From the IMG/VR virus record IMGVR_UViG_3300033153_012010, positions 4,088 to 68,087 of that record: a DNA stretch of 64,000 nt; one strand, written 5' to 3'. The stretch is from a virus. Made by a program: the position numbers and the translations under genes. The notes below the pieces were generated by a model. That model was not told the origin of the DNA. It worked only from the letters and a program-made list of their open reading frames with translations, and searched no databases. Of this stretch, positions 1,367-61,757 are shown one piece after another; position 1 is the stretch's first letter, and each line of letters opens with the position of its first letter.

Positions 1367-2268
1367 TATTTAAACTCTTTGATAATATCAACTTTTAAAT
1401 CAATTATCTCCTTCTTATCTTCAATTGATAATTTTTTAAAAATGTTATTAATTAACTGCATTTCATCAGTATAAGGATTGTTCATCCAGGTTGGTGGATG
1501 GTACATATGATATAGTTCAATATCTGGTTCATCTGAAATATGCATCTTGTCAACAACATCTACTTTGGCCCAAAAAAATGCATCCTCTGGAGAGTTGGCT
1601 AAAAACAATTCCGCATCATAACCACCTACTTCAAAAAACAAATCTCTCTCAACAAGTATTGAACCTCCTGGGGCTCCAATCATTATTTTTCCACCAAGCC
1701 TTGGGTAGTCTACTTCTGGCATATCTATATTAAGGTCATCAATTGAAAACTCTCCTGACATTACCTTTGGGGTAAACTCTTCATTAATATAAAGAACCCT
1801 TCTTCCAGTAAAGCATTGAATTGCTCTACATTGTTTGTGAGATATGTTGTCAAATAGATTTAAAAAGAAATCAGTTTGAACTAAGCAATCAATATCATGA
1901 AACAAACAGTATTTTGATTTATTACCAAAAAATACAGCCGCATTATATGAGAGGCATTTGTTAAATAGCTTTTCTTCCTCTGGCCTAATCCAAATATAAT
2001 TAAGCTTATTCTTTTTACAAAACTTCGAATGTTCTGGTAATTTTGAATGCTCAACTACTGTGTAAGTAATGTTGAGTGGAGATTTTTCTGCAGCTGCAAG
2101 GAAGCTTTTATACATTGGCTCAGCAAATTCAGCTCTACCTCTTGCTGTAATTATAAAATTTATATCATAAGATTCTTCAGGATTCTGAATAATTACAACA
2201 TTCTCTTCCTTTACTTTATTGTAATCAAACCTCTTAGCTTTTATATGTTTAATTAAATCTTCTTTCAT
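1366..2268 (-). CDS. Glycosyltransferase, GT2/GT7-C (galactosyltransferase-like)
   Basis: FNK..SYN, FHDID (DxD), GGSILV.RDLFFEVGGYD, ED and LYHMYH motifs. Confidence 0.8.
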   Translation of the reverse strand: MKEDLIKHIKAKRFDYNKVKEENVVIIQNPEESYDINFIITARGRAEFAEPMYKSFLAAAEKSPLNITYTVVEHSKLPEHSKFCKKNKLNYIWIRPEEEKLFNKCLSYNAAVFFGNKSKYCLFHDIDCLVQTDFFLNLFDNISHKQCRAIQCFTGRRVLYINEEFTPKVMSGEFSIDDLNIDMPEVDYPRLGGKIMIGAPGGSILVERDLFFEVGGYDAELFLANSPEDAFFWAKVDVVDKMHISDEPDIELYHMYHPPTWMNNPYTDEMQLINNIFKKLSIEDKKEIIDLKVDIIKEFK

Positions 2269-3038
2269 TATAGATTAAGTGTTTCAGCCCCTTTTTTATA
2301 AGACACGATTGTTTTTAAAGGAGTCTTTTGGCTTACTGCTTTGTGAACATCCCATTGAGCTTGTTGGTTTACTCTATCTTCTGAGATTGGATTATCTCTA
2401 TTGTAAATATAAAGAATGGTATCGTTAAACAATGTCTTGTCATGACCAGCCATTTCCATAATAGAAAACATCATTGCTGTATCATAAGACCAACGATAAA
2501 AGTTTCCATCATCATCTTTTAAGTGAGCAAAGTTTGGACTCTGGTCTTCAATTCTTTGATATAATCCAGCTCTAAATGTTCTCAGGTGAGATACTTTAAA
2601 AGGACCAGTTCTAACGTTATCAAATTCTTCTGGAGTATAAGAAGTTGCGAAGCCTCTTTGTCCATTTGTCCAACTTGCCTGTCCATACATAATCCAACAG
2701 TCATGTTCTTTATATTGCTCATCAACATATTTAAGAACTTTCTTGTTTGGAAACCAATCATCTCCATCAAGAAGAACAACGATGTCGTCTTCATCACAAT
2801 GATTCATAATAGCATCATGAATATTTTCAAGAGCTGTCTTACGAACTGTATTATTAATTATAGTAATTTTATAATCTTCTTCTGGAAGCTTCTCAAGAGA
2901 GTCATCTGTAGACATATCATTAATGAATATTACTTCATAATTATCATATCTTTGTGTTATAGCTGTAGCCACACACTTCTCTAAGAAATCTCCTGGATTG
3001 TAGAAAGGTATTATAACCTTCATTTTATTATTTTTCAT
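2268..3038 (-). CDS. Glycosyltransferase family 2
   Basis: VIIPFYN..FLEKCV..Q.YDNYEVIFINDMSTDDS and LDGDDW; paralog of 602..1366. Start placed at ATG 3038. Confidence 0.9.
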   Translation of the reverse strand: MKNNKMKVIIPFYNPGDFLEKCVATAITQRYDNYEVIFINDMSTDDSLEKLPEEDYKITIINNTVRKTALENIHDAIMNHCDEDDIVVLLDGDDWFPNKKVLKYVDEQYKEHDCWIMYGQASWTNGQRGFATSYTPEEFDNVRTGPFKVSHLRTFRAGLYQRIEDQSPNFAHLKDDDGNFYRWSYDTAMMFSIMEMAGHDKTLFNDTILYIYNRDNPISEDRVNQQAQWDVHKAVSQKTPLKTIVSYKKGAETLNL

Positions 3039-3642: not shown

Positions 3643-4613
3643 TTTTCTTCTTTTTTATTTACCATTTGTTCAATTTTATCGAAAATTTTATCTATCTCAA
3701 ACTTCTCTTCTTCAGTTGTTTCATTCCATTTCTTTCCGAATTTTTTTATTGCAACTTTATCTAATGAAGAACTCTCTACTGTTAGGTCTCCAAGTTCAAG
3801 TTTTTGATGACACCCTTTTATGTTAGAGAAGTCTATAGATTCTAAATTTATAAATTTGTCATCAAGAAATTTCGTATTCATTATTCTTCTCCTAACTCCT
3901 GCTTCCATGTTTTTATATAACACTTCTTTCTCGTCTTCTATAGATTGCTGTACCCTTCCAGCTGGAACTCCAACAAGAGTGCTTTCTTTATAGGATACCA
4001 TCTTGTTTCTTGGAAACGTTTCTGTGTAGTCAAATAAAGATGCTTCCAACCCTTCTGCGTTTACAAACTTTGATTTCTTTGTAAGTTTATAAATATCCTT
4101 TCTCCTAAAGATATGACCCTCTGTTGAGAATGGGTATCCAAAATCAAGATAGTGAAGCGTCCAATCCCATTTCATAAAATCTCCACAATCTTCTATATCA
4201 TTTAATACATTCTCTGCACCAAGAGTATAACACTTTGTAGTATTCTCCCCAAGTCTAAGAGAAAAGCATACAACATCATCATCTGCTTCTATTTGACTAG
4301 TAATATCTTCTAGCTTGATTTCTTTATATATGATGTTATCATCAAGAAAAAAACAAGCGTAGTCATGTTTGCTATTAAGATTCTCTACAACTTGTTCTCT
4401 AAAGTCATCTGTTTCCCTCTCAAAGTTTACGTGACTAAACCTCTTATCATCTACAACACGACCATATGCCTCATCAAAATACTCTTCAGTACCTTTGATT
4501 ATAATATTCAAATCAAATACACCTGGGGCATTTTTGTTCACGCTCTCTAGGAAAATATTTAACTGAGCAGCATTGTCGTTGCTAAATACTATTGCATTAA
4601 TCTTTTGACTCAT
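3639..4613 (-). CDS. Putative glycosyltransferase (GT-A-like)
   Basis: AIVFS...AAQL..FLES N-terminus and FFLDDNI acidic motif; lies in the glycosyltransferase operon. Confidence 0.55.
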   Translation of the reverse strand: MSQKINAIVFSNDNAAQLNIFLESVNKNAPGVFDLNIIIKGTEEYFDEAYGRVVDDKRFSHVNFERETDDFREQVVENLNSKHDYACFFLDDNIIYKEIKLEDITSQIEADDDVVCFSLRLGENTTKCYTLGAENVLNDIEDCGDFMKWDWTLHYLDFGYPFSTEGHIFRRKDIYKLTKKSKFVNAEGLEASLFDYTETFPRNKMVSYKESTLVGVPAGRVQQSIEDEKEVLYKNMEAGVRRRIMNTKFLDDKFINLESIDFSNIKGCHQKLELGDLTVESSSLDKVAIKKFGKKWNETTEEEKFEIDKIFDKIEQMVNKKEEK

Positions 4614-54573: not shown

Positions 54574-54601
54574 GTAATATTTATAATAAAAAGAATTAGT
54601 T

Positions 54602-56651: not shown

Positions 56652-56855
56652 ATGAACAACGTAGACATCGCAATTCAAAAAGTTAGACAATTACAACAAA
56701 TGCTTTTTGATTCCAAACAAAGTCCAGATGACCTTTTTAAATTCACACATGTAGTGATAGAATATATGGAGAAGGCTAGTACAGAAATCAAAACCAATTA
56801 CGAAGAAATCAGTAAAAAATTAACTGATGAAATGAATACTGGTAAAAAACAATAA
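56652..56855 (+). CDS. Small hypothetical protein
   Basis: 67-aa helical ORF with an A-rich start context. Confidence 0.6.
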   Translation: MNNVDIAIQKVRQLQQMLFDSKQSPDDLFKFTHVVIEYMEKASTEIKTNYEEISKKLTDEMNTGKKQ

Positions 56856-56863
56856 GACAATAA

Positions 56864-57964
56864 ATGCCTGTAGAAGATTTTACATTTAATGGAGTTAGTA
56901 AATTTATTTCTATTTCCAGTGGAGTTACCATAGTTGATGTACAGGATATGTACTCAAGATGGAAGGAGTGGACCCAATTGTCAGATAATTCTAAATATCT
57001 TCAAGCACTGAGAACATTTGGGGGTGACCCCACTATTGCAGGACAGTTCGCACCAAGATATTATTTCCTTCAAAATGGTTGGAGAGTTTTTGTTGATACT
57101 GGGGAATTACTTTCTGTAGGAACTAATCTATATACCGAAGAGCTTGTAAGTCCATATATTATTGGGTCTGGTTCTTCTGTGTCTGATAGTAACTCTGATG
57201 CTGTTGTTGTTGATAATGGAATTGCTGAGTCTCTTGATTATAATGGGATTGTTCATGTTAACCCAACTATAGGGATTCCTGGAACAGAATTCCCAGCTGG
57301 AACAATTGCTCAACCTGTTACAACATTAGCTGATGCTGTAACGATTGCAAATGATAGAGGTATTTTAGAAATTGGAATTCATGGAACTAATTATGTTAGC
57401 ACAGATGTTAGTGGATTTGTGATAAAAGGAGGTAGAGTAACTGATGTATTAGTATTCATTACAGGAAATTACATTAACAATTCAACACTTAAAGAACTTG
57501 TTATTGCTGGTTCATATTCTGGTTTTGTAGTATCTGAAACTTGCCAATTAGCAAATGGACTAACTGGCGATGGTGGTGTTTTTAAAGATTGTGGACTTCA
57601 AGGGTCTTATAATATTAATGAAAATTCAAATCTTTCAATATTAAATTGCTCATCAATGGTTCCAGGTGATAATTCGCCCTCAATTCATTTAAGTAGTGGT
57701 TCAACAGTTAATTTAAGGAAGTATAGTGGTGGAATGATGTGGTATGATATAGAAGTTGGAACAGACATAAGCGCTGAGTTCCTTGCTGGTAGTTGTCAAA
57801 TATTAACTGGATGTACTGGAGGTGAAATGCATATTAGAGGGATAGCATCTCTTGATGACCAATCAAGTGGAACAACAGTTGATATAGGGGGATTGATAAT
57901 ACCTTCAAGACTTGCACAACAACAAACATTAAATGTAAATACAGAGATTACAAAAAATAAATAA
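56864..57964 (+). CDS. Virion structural protein
   Basis: DVQDMYSRWKEW...KY..A.R..GGDP N-terminus; G...PAGT...PV..LADA motif. Confidence 0.75.
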   Translation: MPVEDFTFNGVSKFISISSGVTIVDVQDMYSRWKEWTQLSDNSKYLQALRTFGGDPTIAGQFAPRYYFLQNGWRVFVDTGELLSVGTNLYTEELVSPYIIGSGSSVSDSNSDAVVVDNGIAESLDYNGIVHVNPTIGIPGTEFPAGTIAQPVTTLADAVTIANDRGILEIGIHGTNYVSTDVSGFVIKGGRVTDVLVFITGNYINNSTLKELVIAGSYSGFVVSETCQLANGLTGDGGVFKDCGLQGSYNINENSNLSILNCSSMVPGDNSPSIHLSSGSTVNLRKYSGGMMWYDIEVGTDISAEFLAGSCQILTGCTGGEMHIRGIASLDDQSSGTTVDIGGLIIPSRLAQQQTLNVNTEITKNK

Positions 57965-57985
57965 AATCATAATTTGATTTTATGA

Positions 57986-58020
57986 AAAAAAGGAGTTATA
58001 TTTATTGTAACCCCTTTTTT
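57986..58020 (+). terminator. Intrinsic terminator with TATTTATT in its loop
   Basis: aaaaaggagttata-tttat-tgtaacccctttttt. Confidence 0.65.
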
Positions 58021-58060
58021 ATGTCAGAAGAAATTTGTTATATCTGGTGGGGGAACAAAA
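58021..58060 (+). pseudogene. Degenerate remnant of a patatin 5' end
   Basis: 58028-58060 translates KKFVISGGGTK, against KRALCISGGGSK in the intact patatin; out of frame with ATG 58021. Confidence 0.6.
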
Positions 58061-58079
58061 TTTTTGAATATTTATAGAT

Positions 58080-58820
58080 ATGGAAGCTATAAATATATAC
58101 ATACTGATTGACCCAGTAACTAAAGAGGTTAGATATGTTGGTAAGACAACAAATATAAAAAAAAGATTTAACAAACATCTGAATGAAAGTAGAAAATCTA
58201 CTACATCGCATAAAAAAGCTTGGATTAAAAGTTTGTTGAAAAAAAATCTGAAACCAGAAATGGAAATAATTGATGTAGTTAATAATGATGAGTGGAAATT
58301 TTGGGAAAGATATTGGATTGAGCAGATGATAGCATGGGGTTTTAAATTGACAAATGAAACTATTGGAGGAGACGGAGTAAATAAAGGAACAGTTCCATGG
58401 AACAAAGGGGTTTTTGGTGTTATGAAACCAAATAAAACAACTTTTAAAAAAGGGAATGAGATAGGAAAAGAAACAAGAATAAAAAAAGGTCAAAGATTTG
58501 GTAAAAAAACAGAGTTTAAAAAAGGAGAAAAACCTCATAATAAAACAAAGTTGTTACAATTTGATTTGGATGGTAAATTTTTAAGAGAGTTTGAAAGTTT
58601 TAAAGAAGCTGCTGAGTACATTGGTGTAGGACAACCAGCTCTTAGTCAATGTTTTATAAGAAAAACCTACAAATGCAAAGGTTATAAATGGAAAAAATTA
58701 GAAAAAAAAAAAAAAAACGAGCCCTGTGTATTTCGGGTGGTGGTAGTAAAGGGGCTTGGGCTGGCGGAGCAATACAATATCTTCTTGAAGATGGAGATAA
58801 GGATTATGACCTTTATGTAG
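58080..58820 (+). CDS. Free-standing GIY-YIG homing endonuclease with NUMOD-type DNA-binding modules
   Basis: NIYIL..RYVGKT...KRF..H, WERYWI, LTN...GGDG, VPWNKG, FKKG repeats and a C-terminal QFDLDG...F.S..EAA...GYKWK module. Confidence 0.9.
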   Translation: MEAINIYILIDPVTKEVRYVGKTTNIKKRFNKHLNESRKSTTSHKKAWIKSLLKKNLKPEMEIIDVVNNDEWKFWERYWIEQMIAWGFKLTNETIGGDGVNKGTVPWNKGVFGVMKPNKTTFKKGNEIGKETRIKKGQRFGKKTEFKKGEKPHNKTKLLQFDLDGKFLREFESFKEAAEYIGVGQPALSQCFIRKTYKCKGYKWKKLEKKKKNEPCVFRVVVVKGLGLAEQYNIFLKMEIRIMTFM

Positions 58821-59623
58821 GGACATCTACAGGGAGTTTAATTGCACCACTTACATCAATAAGAGAAATTAGCATCTTAAAAGAGGGTTACACAAATATT
58901 ACTTCAGAAGATATATTCTCAGTTAATCCTTTTGATAAGAATGGGGAAATAAAACTTTGGAATGCATTTTGGAGAGTTATTAGTCTTAAAAAAACCCTAG
59001 GAGAAACTGAAACACTGAGAGATTTAATTAAGAAACATTTTCAAGAAAAACATTTTGATAGGTTATATAAATCTGAAAAAGAAGTAATTGCTGTTGTTAC
59101 AAATCTAACCGACAAGAAACCAGAATTCAAATCATCAAACAACAATAAGTATGAAGACTTCATTGATTGGCTTTGGGCATCATGCAATGCGCCAATGTTC
59201 ACATCAATATTAGAAAAGGATGATAATCAATATGCAGATGGAGCTATCTTCCAACATATACCAATTCAAGTGGCCATAGAAAATGGGGCAACAGAAATTG
59301 ATGTTATTGTTCTTAGTCCAGAGGGATTTGGTGTTGTTAAGAGAAATAAAGTTAATAACATATTTCAAAACTTCTTTAGGTTAATGGAAATTATGCAAAG
59401 AAAAATTGCTAAAGACAACATTGACCTTAACAAGCTTAACTCTCATGGAAAAGAAGTTTCCATCAATGTTTACTACACGCCATATAGGCTTACAGAAAAT
59501 TCTCTAGTATTCGACAAAGAAGAAATGCTGAAGTGGTGGGATGAAGGATACATTAATGCAAAATCTGGAAATGTAAAGAAATACAAAATCACTAGGTCCA
59601 ACGTATTCAAAGAGGTTGAATAA
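58688..59623 (+). CDS. Patatin-like phospholipase
   Basis: ISGGGSKG oxyanion loop, GTSTG nucleophile elbow, ASC.AP.F and YADGA catalytic Asp. Confidence 0.95.
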   Translation: MEKIRKKKKKRALCISGGGSKGAWAGGAIQYLLEDGDKDYDLYVGTSTGSLIAPLTSIREISILKEGYTNITSEDIFSVNPFDKNGEIKLWNAFWRVISLKKTLGETETLRDLIKKHFQEKHFDRLYKSEKEVIAVVTNLTDKKPEFKSSNNNKYEDFIDWLWASCNAPMFTSILEKDDNQYADGAIFQHIPIQVAIENGATEIDVIVLSPEGFGVVKRNKVNNIFQNFFRLMEIMQRKIAKDNIDLNKLNSHGKEVSINVYYTPYRLTENSLVFDKEEMLKWWDEGYINAKSGNVKKYKITRSNVFKEVE

Positions 59624-59659
59624 TAATCTTTTTGATTCTATTTATATAAAAAGCGTAAT

Positions 59660-59968
59660 ATGGACATTGGAACTGGACAAACTGTATATGAACAAATAAT
59701 TTCTGTGAATGCAGATAATGCCCCTGTTGTTGGAACTACATTCGATACAACGATGTATAGAGATGGTTCTGAATACTCTGGAATTACAGTAGGAGTATCA
59801 TTAACAGATTCATCAAGAGGAGTTTATACAGCAACCTGGTCAGCAACAACGACTGGAGATTATCAATTATACGCAAAAAACAATATAACTTCTGTTATTT
59901 TTATATCAGATAATGTTATTGTCAAACCAGACAACGAACTAAGCACAATTATTTATATCGGAACGTAA
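59660..59968 (+). CDS. Small Ig-like virion protein
   Basis: TATTTATA at 59639; GVYTATW....GDYQL beta-strand pattern. Confidence 0.65.
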   Translation: MDIGTGQTVYEQIISVNADNAPVVGTTFDTTMYRDGSEYSGITVGVSLTDSSRGVYTATWSATTTGDYQLYAKNNITSVIFISDNVIVKPDNELSTIIYIGT

Positions 59969-60014
59969 TTTCTGAAATGCATTTTTTTACCCCTATTTAT
60001 TAGAAATAATAAAT

Positions 60015-61757
60015 ATGATTGATAATAAAATGTTGGAATATGCCAGATGCGTAAAAGACCCTGTGTATTTTATGAATACCTATGGTTATGTGTTTGATGC
60101 AAGGAAGAAGATGGTTGCTCCTATGACTTGTTTTGAATATCAAAATGATTGTCTTAGAAAGTTTCATGAAAATAGAGAAAACATAATTCTTAAATCTAGG
60201 CAAACAGGCCTTTCTGTAATTACAGCTGGATATGTTGCTTGGAGGCTTTTATTTAGGTATGATGAGAAAATACTTATCATTGCTAATGATGGAGCTGGAG
60301 CTGTTCGTTTCCTTGAAACGGTTAAGCAATTTATTGAATACACTCCGATGTGGCTTAAGCCTGATGAAATCATATCAGATAATCAAAGAAAAATTTCATT
60401 CTCAAATAATTCTTATGCAGAAGCGAAAGCTTCAAGTCCGAATGCTGGTCGTGGAGATTCTCTTACAATGTTGATTCTTGATGAAACAGCCTTTATCAAA
60501 GATGATGAGGCTATTTGGATGGGTGCTGGTATGGCACTTGCTATGACTGGAGGTAAATGTATTATGATTTCTACTCCTAATGGAACAAGTGGATTGTATT
60601 ATAAAACATGGCGTAATGCTATTAATAATGATAATGAATTTGTTGGAACTACTGTTCACTGGACAGAGAATCCAAACAGTTCTGAGGGTCTTGAGTGGAA
60701 AACAGATGCCCAAGGAGAGAAGACACCTTGGAGCCCTTGGTATGAAGCACAATGTAAAAGACTTGACTGGGACTCAGTGCAAATTGCTCAAGAGCTTGAC
60801 CTTTCATTTGAAGGTTCTAAGAGACTTGCTATTGACCCGACTCTTGTGATTAAATATAAGAAGAGAGTTGAGGATGACCATAAACCAGAAGGATATATAT
60901 TATATAATTTTCTTGAGAAAGATAATCCAGATGTATCAATATTTGCTAAATATACTATGGAAGAAACAAATCTTCAGATATTTAGGAGACCAGAAGAAGG
61001 ACAACAATACATACTTGGTGTCGATGTTGCAAGGGGAGATGGAAAAGATTTCTCTACAATTCAAGTTCTTAATGTAGATACTCTTGAACAAGTTGCTGAG
61101 TATAGAGAAAAGATTGGTCCAGATTTATTTCCTTTTATTATTAATAATGTAGCAAAGATGTATAACATGGCTTATGTTGTTATAGAGGCTAATTCATTTG
61201 GTCTTGGTGTTTGTTTTGATATAAGAGACAAATTCAAATATCCTAGAAACAGATTATATTTTTCTAAAAATGTAAAAGACATTCACGTAAGACATTATAA
61301 CTATAAAGTTAATGAAGGAACAGAGATTCCAGGATTCCAGACTTCAAGAAAGAACAGAGTTCTGCTTGTTAAGGCTATCATTGAACATATGAGAGAGAAT
61401 TCATTAATTCTTCACTCGAAGAAGTTGATGGCAGAATTTGAAACATTTGTAATGAATGGAGATAAACCAGAGCATGAGAAAGGTTCTCATGATGATTTAA
61501 TTATGGCTCTTGGGATTGCTCTTTACATTAGAGATACAGAATTTGAAAATGTTACAAACAGTACTGAAATGACTAAGAGCATGCTTCAAGCAATGATGCT
61601 TAATGCAAACCCAGCTACTGGAATGATTAAGAAAGAAGGTGATAAAAAAATTGATATACCTAACGGTGGTGGAGGTCTCTATATATTTAATGGAGATGGA
61701 AGCATTGGAGGGCAAGAAAATACAGATATAGATGATACGAGTTGGTTAATGGGATAA
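60015..61757 (+). CDS. terL: Terminase large subunit (T4 gp17-like)
   Basis: KSRQTGLS Walker A, LILDETAF Walker B, ISTPNG, GVDVARGDGKDFS and HDDLIMA nuclease motifs. Confidence 0.97.
   Translation: MIDNKMLEYARCVKDPVYFMNTYGYVFDARKKMVAPMTCFEYQNDCLRKFHENRENIILKSRQTGLSVITAGYVAWRLLFRYDEKILIIANDGAGAVRFLETVKQFIEYTPMWLKPDEIISDNQRKISFSNNSYAEAKASSPNAGRGDSLTMLILDETAFIKDDEAIWMGAGMALAMTGGKCIMISTPNGTSGLYYKTWRNAINNDNEFVGTTVHWTENPNSSEGLEWKTDAQGEKTPWSPWYEAQCKRLDWDSVQIAQELDLSFEGSKRLAIDPTLVIKYKKRVEDDHKPEGYILYNFLEKDNPDVSIFAKYTMEETNLQIFRRPEEGQQYILGVDVARGDGKDFSTIQVLNVDTLEQVAEYREKIGPDLFPFIINNVAKMYNMAYVVIEANSFGLGVCFDIRDKFKYPRNRLYFSKNVKDIHVRHYNYKVNEGTEIPGFQTSRKNRVLLVKAIIEHMRENSLILHSKKLMAEFETFVMNGDKPEHEKGSHDDLIMALGIALYIRDTEFENVTNSTEMTKSMLQAMMLNANPATGMIKKEGDKKIDIPNGGGGLYIFNGDGSIGGQENTDIDDTSWLMG

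Follow-up and report, generated by a model that had tools for sequence, protein, structure and literature searches.

How can a homing endonuclease gene (HEG) come to lie across the start of a phage gene, and which of the two beginnings that the gene then displays is the original one? The question is raised by a patatin-like phospholipase gene in the 64,000-nucleotide (nt) stretch of viral DNA analysed here (the window; positions 4,088 to 68,087 of IMG/VR record IMGVR_UViG_3300033153_012010), in which two copies of the glycine-rich loop of patatin (Gly-loop) occur, one upstream of a free-standing GIY-YIG endonuclease open reading frame (ORF) and one within its 3' end. The answer that we favour, with a probability of roughly 80%, is that a GIY-YIG cassette sits at the 5' end of the phage patatin gene, that the severed start was left as a stub and that a substitute start was supplied with the cassette. 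In this cassette a short leader and the HEG are followed by the substitute 5' end of patatin, whose start codon overlaps the last conserved Trp codon of the HEG. The anatomy of the locus, its recurrence, the presence/absence polymorphism among relatives, the decayed copies and the mosaic patch at the 5' end are direct observations.

The upstream Gly-loop copy belongs to a dead remnant of the patatin 5' end (psi). Positions 58021–58032 read ATG TCA GAA GAA, the original start (MSEE), and, after a one-base frame change, positions 58034–58060 read TTT GTT ATA TCT GGT GGG GGA ACA AAA (F-VISGGGTK). The ATG at 58021 is thereby in frame 1 and the Gly-loop copy at 58037–58060 in frame 2; the Lys-rich leader between start and Gly-loop is missing. 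The intact Gly-loop at 58727–58750 reads tgt att tcg ggt ggt ggt agt aaa (CISGGGSK) and is part of a patatin gene that matches its Pfam profile over all 191 of 191 positions (1–191; E = 4.7e-29), with the GGGSKG, GTSTG and DGA motifs present in the translation. The ATG of this gene (58688–58690) is formed by the last base of the Lys203 codon of the HEG and the TG of Trp204. The Gly-loop peptide pattern has exactly two matches in the six frames of the window, at 58034 and 58724, compared with a mean of 0.025 matches per 64 kb expected by chance (40 Markov simulations). All of the sequence statements made about this locus in the first-pass annotation are correct: the two Gly-loop copies and their coordinates, the out-of-frame upstream copy, the HEG ATG at 58080 and the overlap of the two genes. 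The coordinates of these and other features are collected in Table 1.

Table 1. Features of the patatin locus and of related loci. Positions refer to the window unless a locus is named; aa, amino acids; score, similarity of the 45 N-terminal residues of the downstream gene to the DNA upstream of the HEG.
Feature	Position	Strand	Remarks
Conserved hairpin and T-run, terminator-like	57986..58020	+	Directly 5' of original patatin start
psi-patatin, remnant of original 5' end	58021..58060	+	Aligns with starts of HEG-free alleles, then with their Gly-loop codons, and ends there
HEG leader with TATTTATA	58061..58079	+	19 nt; TATTTATA at 58069-58076
Free-standing GIY-YIG + NUMOD1 homing endonuclease ORF	58080..58820	+	246 aa; Pfam
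Patatin-like phospholipase, complete	58688..59623	+	311 aa; Pfam PF01734
Cassette-borne substitute 5' end, mosaic patch	58688..58768	+	History unlike rest of gene
Run of 16 A (Lys codons of new leader)	58702..58717	+	HEG stop lost here; TAA at equivalent place in L013
Second patatin paralogue	L013:1194-2120; L019:1838-2713; L152:25-702; L117:2-199		Immediately upstream of hairpin
L131, Glu/Gln-tRNA synthetase domain	Stub 1251-1322; intact 2205-2276		Score 118 (shuffle maximum 40)
L125, P-loop-like protein, no Pfam family	Stub 1540-1599; intact from 2215		Score 61 (shuffle maximum 36)
L128, deoxynucleoside monophosphate (dNMP) kinase	Stub 1947-1979; intact from 2729		Score 36 (shuffle maximum 40; 95th percentile 28)

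Enzymes of the I-TevI type consist of a GIY-YIG domain, a linker and a helix-turn-helix, and cleave at a distance from their binding site. The HEG of the window has the same two-part build according to Pfam, with a GIY-YIG domain (PF01541) at residues 5–81 (E = 4.7e-9, 36.9 bits against a curated cut-off of 22.6) and the DNA-binding module NUMOD1 (PF07453) at residues 160–190 (E = 5.5e-6, 26.9 bits against a curated cut-off of 22.8). Alignments of four HEG lineages show Tyr7, Tyr19, Gly21, Arg29, His33, His44, Glu76 and Asn92 to be invariant; by analogy to I-TevI we take these to be the expected catalytic residues (Tyr of GIY, Tyr-x-Gly, Arg, His, Glu and Asn). Judged by its domains and conserved residues, the HEG is a member of the GIY-YIG homing endonucleases. 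Unlike I-TevI it is not intron-encoded, and its similarity to solved structures is negligible, the sole match being a marginal one to T4 endonuclease II (E = 0.0032). The conserved part of the protein ends at Trp204 (58689–58691), and the last ∼42 codons are read-through into patatin. The HEG and patatin ORFs overlap by 133 nt, most of it because the window copy has lost a stop codon that is present in its relatives, where the HEG stops 3–30 nt past the patatin ATG or before it. The first-pass annotation had placed the intact copy inside the 3' end of the HEG; the overlap is real, and most of its length stems from the loss of the stop in this copy.

The original start was identified by comparison with the relatives L152, L001 and L002, which lack the HEG and share with the window the downstream 102-aa ORF and the terminase (the large terminase, TerL, of L152 is 84% identical). 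Their patatin genes start at the homologue of 58021, with the codons ATG TCA GAA GA in L152 and L002 and ATG GCA GAA GA in L001. The window patatin is 92% identical to the L152 protein; even close relatives differ in whether they carry the HEG at this locus. Since the patatin ATG of these HEG-free relatives directly follows the same hairpin and T-run, the original patatin start is at 58021, and it follows that the upstream copy is the severed original 5' end. A patatin start near 58021 in HEG-free relatives had been predicted from the window alone. The further expectation that these relatives would carry the upstream codons was borne out for the start codons, which in the remnant are an exact match to L152. 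The Gly-loop codons of the remnant agree with the HEG-free relatives at 14 of 21 nt, no better than the 13–15 of 21 nt obtained against the intact copies of HEG-bearing alleles; the corresponding value for the inserted patch is 34/51 (67%), the stretches being too short for the two to be told apart.

HEG searches returned eight distinct lineages with at least 50% identity to one another, and in 8/8 the HEG is located immediately upstream of a patatin gene. Besides the window itself these are L117 (81–83% HEG identity to the window), the L013 group (64%; five records that are 100% identical over 1,700 nt), L119 (61–65%), the L044 group (52–56%), L091/L121 (60%), L120 (60%) and L122 (58%). Loci with more distant HEGs gave no patatin match, patatin being found only in L087–L092 (30 loci) and L117–L124 (34 loci). 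Across the groups the patatins are as little as 38–47% identical and the HEGs 54–66%, and the two identities are barely correlated (Spearman rho 0.28, p = 0.15, 28 pairs). Uncoupled pairs include the window and L091 (HEG 60%, patatin 40%) and the window and L013 (HEG 64%, patatin 81%). This lack of correlation indicates that the HEG has passed between patatin alleles that are only distantly related.

A psi that ends at the Gly-loop and is followed by the HEG leader is found in five of the eight lineages (the window, L117, L119, the L013 group and L044), and among the first 87 sources examined a second Gly-loop copy occurs only in the six that carry a full HEG. Upstream, each psi carries the start type of the lineage to which it belongs, namely MSEE (window), MAEE..NIPGKLKK (L013) or MKAL (L044). 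The original ATG is lost in L117 and mutated to TTG in L119, while the psi of the L013 group is in frame with its ATG. The deletions within psi differ from lineage to lineage, which is what decay of a pseudogene would produce. The idea that translation of the HEG is coupled to that of a short ORF beginning at the old ATG was dropped, as it fits only two of the five lineages: in the window and the L013 group the frame of the old ATG stays open up to a TAG located 2 nt 5' of the HEG ATG, in L117 the ATG is lost, in L119 it is replaced by TTG and the frame stops earlier, and in L044 the frame continues beyond the HEG ATG.

The patatin family provides the context for the substitute start. Among 4,413 protein relatives (E up to 1e-20), the closest patatins have two types of N-terminus: a long type, M-S/A/P-E-E/D...K-K-P-F-K-G-K-K-A-L-V-I-S-G-G-G, to which the HEG-free L152, L001 and L002 belong, and a short type, for example M-E-K-G-K-R-K-K-G-K-R-A-L.., to which the MEKIRKKKKKRAL.. 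of the window belongs. In a maximum-likelihood tree of the patatin body, with N-terminus and Gly-loop excluded (52 rows, P0001–P0053 minus the partial P0041; 20 long, 32 short), 14 changes of N-terminus type are needed, at least nine of them forced by well supported branches. The type labels are hardly more clustered than shuffled ones (65–67 of 500 shuffles are as low). One short-type row, P0024 (carried by L010), and one long-type row, P0031, have identical bodies.

Decayed copies of the HEG were found at the equivalent position, next to short N-termini. L019 retains a psi and only the last ∼40 HEG codons (hmmsearch E = 1e-14), and in L010 a MAED-RALIV start is fused to a C-terminal HEG remnant (E = 0.64, clear by eye). 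In L007, L039 and L043 the last 8–10 codons remain, in the +1 frame across the patatin ATG, as judged by eye only. All five have the short type, which suggests that decayed HEGs leave the short substitute N-terminus behind as a scar.

The substitute 5' end has a history of its own. Over the HEG and patatin the window is ∼85% identical to L117 in DNA; in a sliding profile this falls to 53–60% at 58680–58770, where the window is 75–81% identical to L013. In the patch at 58718–58768 the identity is 31/51 (61%) to L117 and 34/51 (67%) to L152, compared with 249/300 (83%) to both in the 300 nt that follow (Fisher p = 0.0006 for L117 and 0.012 for L152). The same patch is 41–42/51 (80–82%) identical to the short-type L013, L010 and L007, the bodies of which are 70–72% identical (p = 0.09–0.3). 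The boundary of the patch lies ∼18 nt beyond the equivalent of the end point of the remnant. The codons cga, gcc, ctg and tcg of the intact copy had been called rare from inspection of the letters, which holds: over 35 ORFs (17,348 codons) they make up 1–4% of their synonymous codons (CGA 1% of Arg, GCC 4% of Ala, CTG 2% of Leu and TCG 2% of Ser), and the 21 codons at 58715–58777 are in the 0.24th percentile of 1,680 such windows. The rare codons are in part common to L010 and L119 (CGA GCC) and to L013 (CGA GCT). A general recoding of the substitute 5' end is not supported, as the codon scores of the 5' ends overlap between the short type (−0.27 to +0.39) and the long type (−0.06 to +0.40). 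The recoded, cleavage-resistant form of the N-terminus that the first-pass annotation proposed is conjectural. By its sequence the substitute is the naturally occurring short N-terminus type (M-E/G-K..K-R-A-L..) travelling with the HEG, and the patch looks inherited from the donor, not specially recoded. The core of that proposal stands: the element supplies what should be the working 5' end, including the start codon, and the layout recurs in independent lineages.

At the other edge of the cassette, a 13-nt stretch from the patatin ATG is present twice, 35 nt apart, in L091 (= L121), a lineage that is free of the remnant (1330–1380); one copy lies at the end of the HEG ORF and a second where patatin starts. 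L120 (2590–2640) has a comparable repeat that is not perfect. Going by the L091 repeat, the 3' end of the HEG seems to carry a copy of the patatin start even where the remnant is absent.

From these comparisons we infer a cleavage position, a repair route and an immunity of the new copy to cutting, which can be combined in the following model. In a mixed infection, the enzyme would cut a HEG-free patatin allele in or next to the catalytic Gly-loop codons (GGGxKG), presumably near the AAA–GGN junction after the Gly-loop, which is equivalent to 58750/58751. Repair of the break would then copy the leader, the HEG and the substitute 5' end from the donor phage, the right-hand exchange taking place within ∼20 nt of the cut, at the mosaic boundary near 58768. 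The 5' end of the recipient up to the break stays upstream as a stub and decays through deletions and frameshifts, a step that is seen directly in the remnants. The patatin protein would be made from the start codon of the cassette, the anatomy being as described above and the expression a prediction. Later the HEG itself decays, as observed in L019, L010, L007, L039 and L043, with the short substitute N-terminus left as a scar.

Several observations weigh against this interpretation. In three of the eight lineages (L091/L121, L120 and L122) there is no remnant, and the HEG comes after the stop codon of another, unrelated gene. A remnant thus need not be present, and it may have originated in one or a few illegitimate events and not in every homing. 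All five remnants contain GGT GGG GG at the Gly-loop, which is found in 0/55 distinct intact alleles, and the remnants match one another at 14–20 of 21 nt in this region, compared with 14/21 for the window remnant and the HEG-free alleles. These Gly-loop sequences are explained by a remnant end that travels with the cassette no less well than by a new recipient end at every event. One reading of the shared GGT GGG GG is that the remnant end is co-converted with the cassette at each homing, as would be expected if repair starts in the remnant; the other is that susceptibility is confined to alleles with that sequence. The cut site is deduced solely from the end points of the remnants. In L012 a short N-terminus is present with no visible trace of a HEG, and the N-terminus classes were assigned by a pattern on gene-caller starts, with DNA context for part of the rows only. 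The codon atypicality is not general in HEG-bearing alleles, as the closest HEG-bearing relative, L117, uses ordinary codons. With its stop codon lost, the window HEG may itself be impaired. Finally, all of the sequences compared are metagenomic assemblies.

The absence of a remnant from three lineages with a HEG upstream of patatin, and the common descent of the remnant end that is suggested by GGT GGG GG, would also suit a simpler explanation, in which the HEG is an ordinary intergenic free-standing one, the remnant is a single old illegitimate recombination or partial duplication that is carried along, and the cut is possibly elsewhere. We regard this as unlikely. The upstream parts of the remnants match the start type of each lineage, the mosaic boundary lies close to the end point of the remnant, and the motif-internal remnants in three other target genes with related HEGs, described below, argue for a repeated process.

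Programmed fusion is a very improbable alternative. The patatin frame is −1 relative to the HEG and the run of 16 A lies just upstream of the join, so that one extra A or a −1 slip, by ribosomal or transcriptional slippage, would join the HEG frame to the patatin frame; yet the HEGs of the relatives stop shortly after the patatin ATG or before it, and the long overlap is peculiar to the window copy. The possibility that the HEG resides in a self-splicing intron, with the upstream Gly-loop copy as exon 1 spliced to the downstream gene, is more remote again. GIY-YIG endonucleases are often intron-encoded, and the in-frame remnant of the L013 group would be compatible with an exon. This reading was rejected since no intron RNA family matched 57800–59000 at E up to 1, in line with the intron-less invasion that had been proposed from the letters. 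Moreover, in the window the Gly-loop copy of the remnant is not in frame with its ATG, in L117 the ATG is gone and in L119 it is replaced by TTG, and a complete alternative start with a whole Gly-loop downstream is not expected of an intron. That the duplicated stretch is short (24–27 nt) and the assembly metagenomic might point to chance similarity or to a chimera of two strains, to which we attach next to no weight: the chance expectation is 0.025 per window, independent assemblies look alike (the L013-type locus is identical in its five records), and the layout is also present in L117, L119, L044 and L124.

The same layout was then sought beside other genes by comparing the N-terminal 45 residues encoded by the downstream gene with the 400 nt preceding the HEG, using 100 shuffles as a control. 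Eighteen distinct non-patatin loci were scored; many others have no same-strand downstream ORF in reach. At three loci with more distant GIY-YIG HEGs, L131, L125 and L128 (Table 1), a stub is followed by the HEG and then by a full gene that starts at the HEG stop, and the stub ends inside a conserved N-terminal motif. The remnant in L131 comprises 24 codons, is identical to the intact start at 68/72 nt and ends with ..PPEPN, where the intact copy continues with GFLHLGH. The HEG-free L159, 88% identical to the L131 gene, runs straight through the break point of this remnant, and its Ile7 is common to the L131 remnant and not to the intact copy. In L125 the remnant ends with ..GHGRHG and the intact copy reads ..GNGQHGKDT. 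The L128 remnant, MIISLSGYMRSG, has as its counterpart ..SGYAGSGKDT in the intact copy, and the ATG of the gene is on the I-W codons of the HEG. One further candidate, L102 (37 against a shuffle maximum of 36), looked like chance.

The window case is probably one example of a wider class. A more specific generalization, which we consider about evenly balanced, is a general and undescribed route by which phage HEGs enter essential coding regions and need neither intron nor intein. A GIY-YIG clade would cut conserved glycine-rich N-terminal catalytic motifs, the native 5' stub would be abandoned and the gene would be restored by the cassette 5' end, with the ATG coming from the terminal Trp codon of the HEG. 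The motifs concerned would include the patatin oxyanion loop, the P-loop of dNMP kinase and the position before the HIGH motif of Glu/Gln-tRNA synthetase.

The closest analogue is found in fungal mitochondrial gene hybrids, of which the phage case is a mirror image at the 5' end. Such hybrids are described for Glomus atp6, atp9, cox2 and nad3, Allomyces macrogynus atp6, Rhizopus atp9 and Mortierella cox2 (PMC3630166). They too combine an endonuclease ORF with a partial copy of the host gene, by which the native part is replaced; what has been displaced persists as a diverging duplicate that in fungi is mostly unexpressed, and the inserted and native parts differ far more in DNA than in protein (PMC3630166). 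The fungal elements replace the 3' end, or C-terminus, and leave the native copy downstream, whereas in the phage it is the 5' end that is exchanged, with the native copy upstream. The start codon within the last conserved codon of the HEG, and the occurrence in a bacteriophage and not a mitochondrion, are further differences.

Among phage systems, free-standing endonucleases and intronless homing are described for elements that are located between genes or that divide a gene into two parts which both function (PMC2988022). The window HEG resembles the Seg-type GIY-YIG enzymes of T4-like phages in combining GIY-YIG with a C-terminal DNA-binding module and in residing between or beside phage genes (PMC2988022; for SegB, PMC2330249), and the presence/absence in close relatives, co-converted flanks and decayed copies are likewise features of intronless homing (PMC2988022). 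It differs from Seg-type elements in that the 5' end of the host gene is abandoned, with a substitute 5' end and start codon borne by the element, and in that the target is a phospholipase gene and not a gene of DNA metabolism. The insertions of mobE in nrdA of phage Aeh1, of mobA between T4 genes 39 and 60 and of seg43 in gene 43, as summarized in PMC2988022, similarly place a HEG in a functionally critical, conserved part of a gene with the function kept; there, by the same account, both halves are translated and reassembled, whereas in the window the full-length downstream copy is the only one able to function, the upstream piece being a pseudogene. The main text of PMC2988022 does not use the word 'duplication'. 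Our search of the freely available literature, which covered titles, the beginnings of abstracts and passages, gave no link of HEGs to phage patatin and no replacement of a 5' end; nothing relevant on partial or N-terminal duplication with phage homing endonucleases was found, as judged from titles and abstracts.

HEGs usually spare their host gene by residing in introns or inteins, by lying between genes or by splitting the gene into two working halves. The phage cassette would represent a fourth route, in which the gene's own start is discarded and a replacement is brought along, including a start codon shared with the last conserved codon of the HEG. Such a route would explain why close phage patatin genes have two unrelated N-termini, in one pair with otherwise identical proteins. 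If the more general reading is correct, the ends of stubs would report cleavage sites directly, so that cut sites could be guessed from sequence only, and scars of past invasions would make up much of the diversity in the N-termini of such phage genes. The signature beside three other genes suggests a class of elements that can be screened for and that could yield new site-specific nucleases for very conserved motifs.

The window (GC content 34%) is taken from a virus record of 68 kb that is estimated to be 21% complete. The patatin locus is preceded by tail-fibre-like genes and followed by the 102-aa ORF, the large terminase and a portal-like gene. A DNA search with 56800–60400 against GenBank phages gave no match, a protein search matched only two uncultured phages, with identities of at most 31%, and the terminase has no cultured relative above 32% identity. 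The hairpin in front of the original patatin start has a folding energy of −12.4 kcal/mol as RNA (z = −5.7; 0/200 shuffles are as stable) and, although its fold is strong, is not among the predictions of a simple terminator scan. It is homologous and ∼90% identical in the HEG-free L152 and alignable in L001 and L002. L152 is on an 8.3-kb contig that was binned into a bacterial metagenome-assembled genome; given the terminase and the phage synteny, a mis-binned phage contig is more likely than a bacterial locus. Directly 5' of the hairpin, several relatives have a second, divergent patatin paralogue (31–39% identical), the place of which is taken in the window by a 366-aa tail-fibre-like ORF with no Pfam match.

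The motif TATTTATA of the HEG leader, called late-type in the first-pass annotation, lies within 20 nt of the HEG ATG in seven of the eight lineages, and the leader as a whole resembles that of the dNMP-kinase-linked HEG in L128. Within the window the motif is enriched about fourfold, with 33 matches (for example at 54578, 58069, 59639 and 61780) compared with 8.7 expected; 0/100 shuffles reach 33. On the plus strand 11 of the 20 copies are within 40 nt upstream of an ORF start, at 3–21 nt 5' of the first ATG in ORFs of 80 aa or more, a zone with a chance coverage of 2.9%. TATTTATA is a likely promoter or start-region motif of this phage.

Related HEGs end in two different C-terminal DNA-binding tails, ..SQVARGERKKAGGYKW and ..QCFIRKTYKCKGYKW, as seen when L119, L044, L010, L039 and L043 are compared with the window, L117, L013, L091, L120 and L122. 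The L119 HEG combines an L117-like N-terminal half with the other tail, a make-up that suggests domain shuffling.

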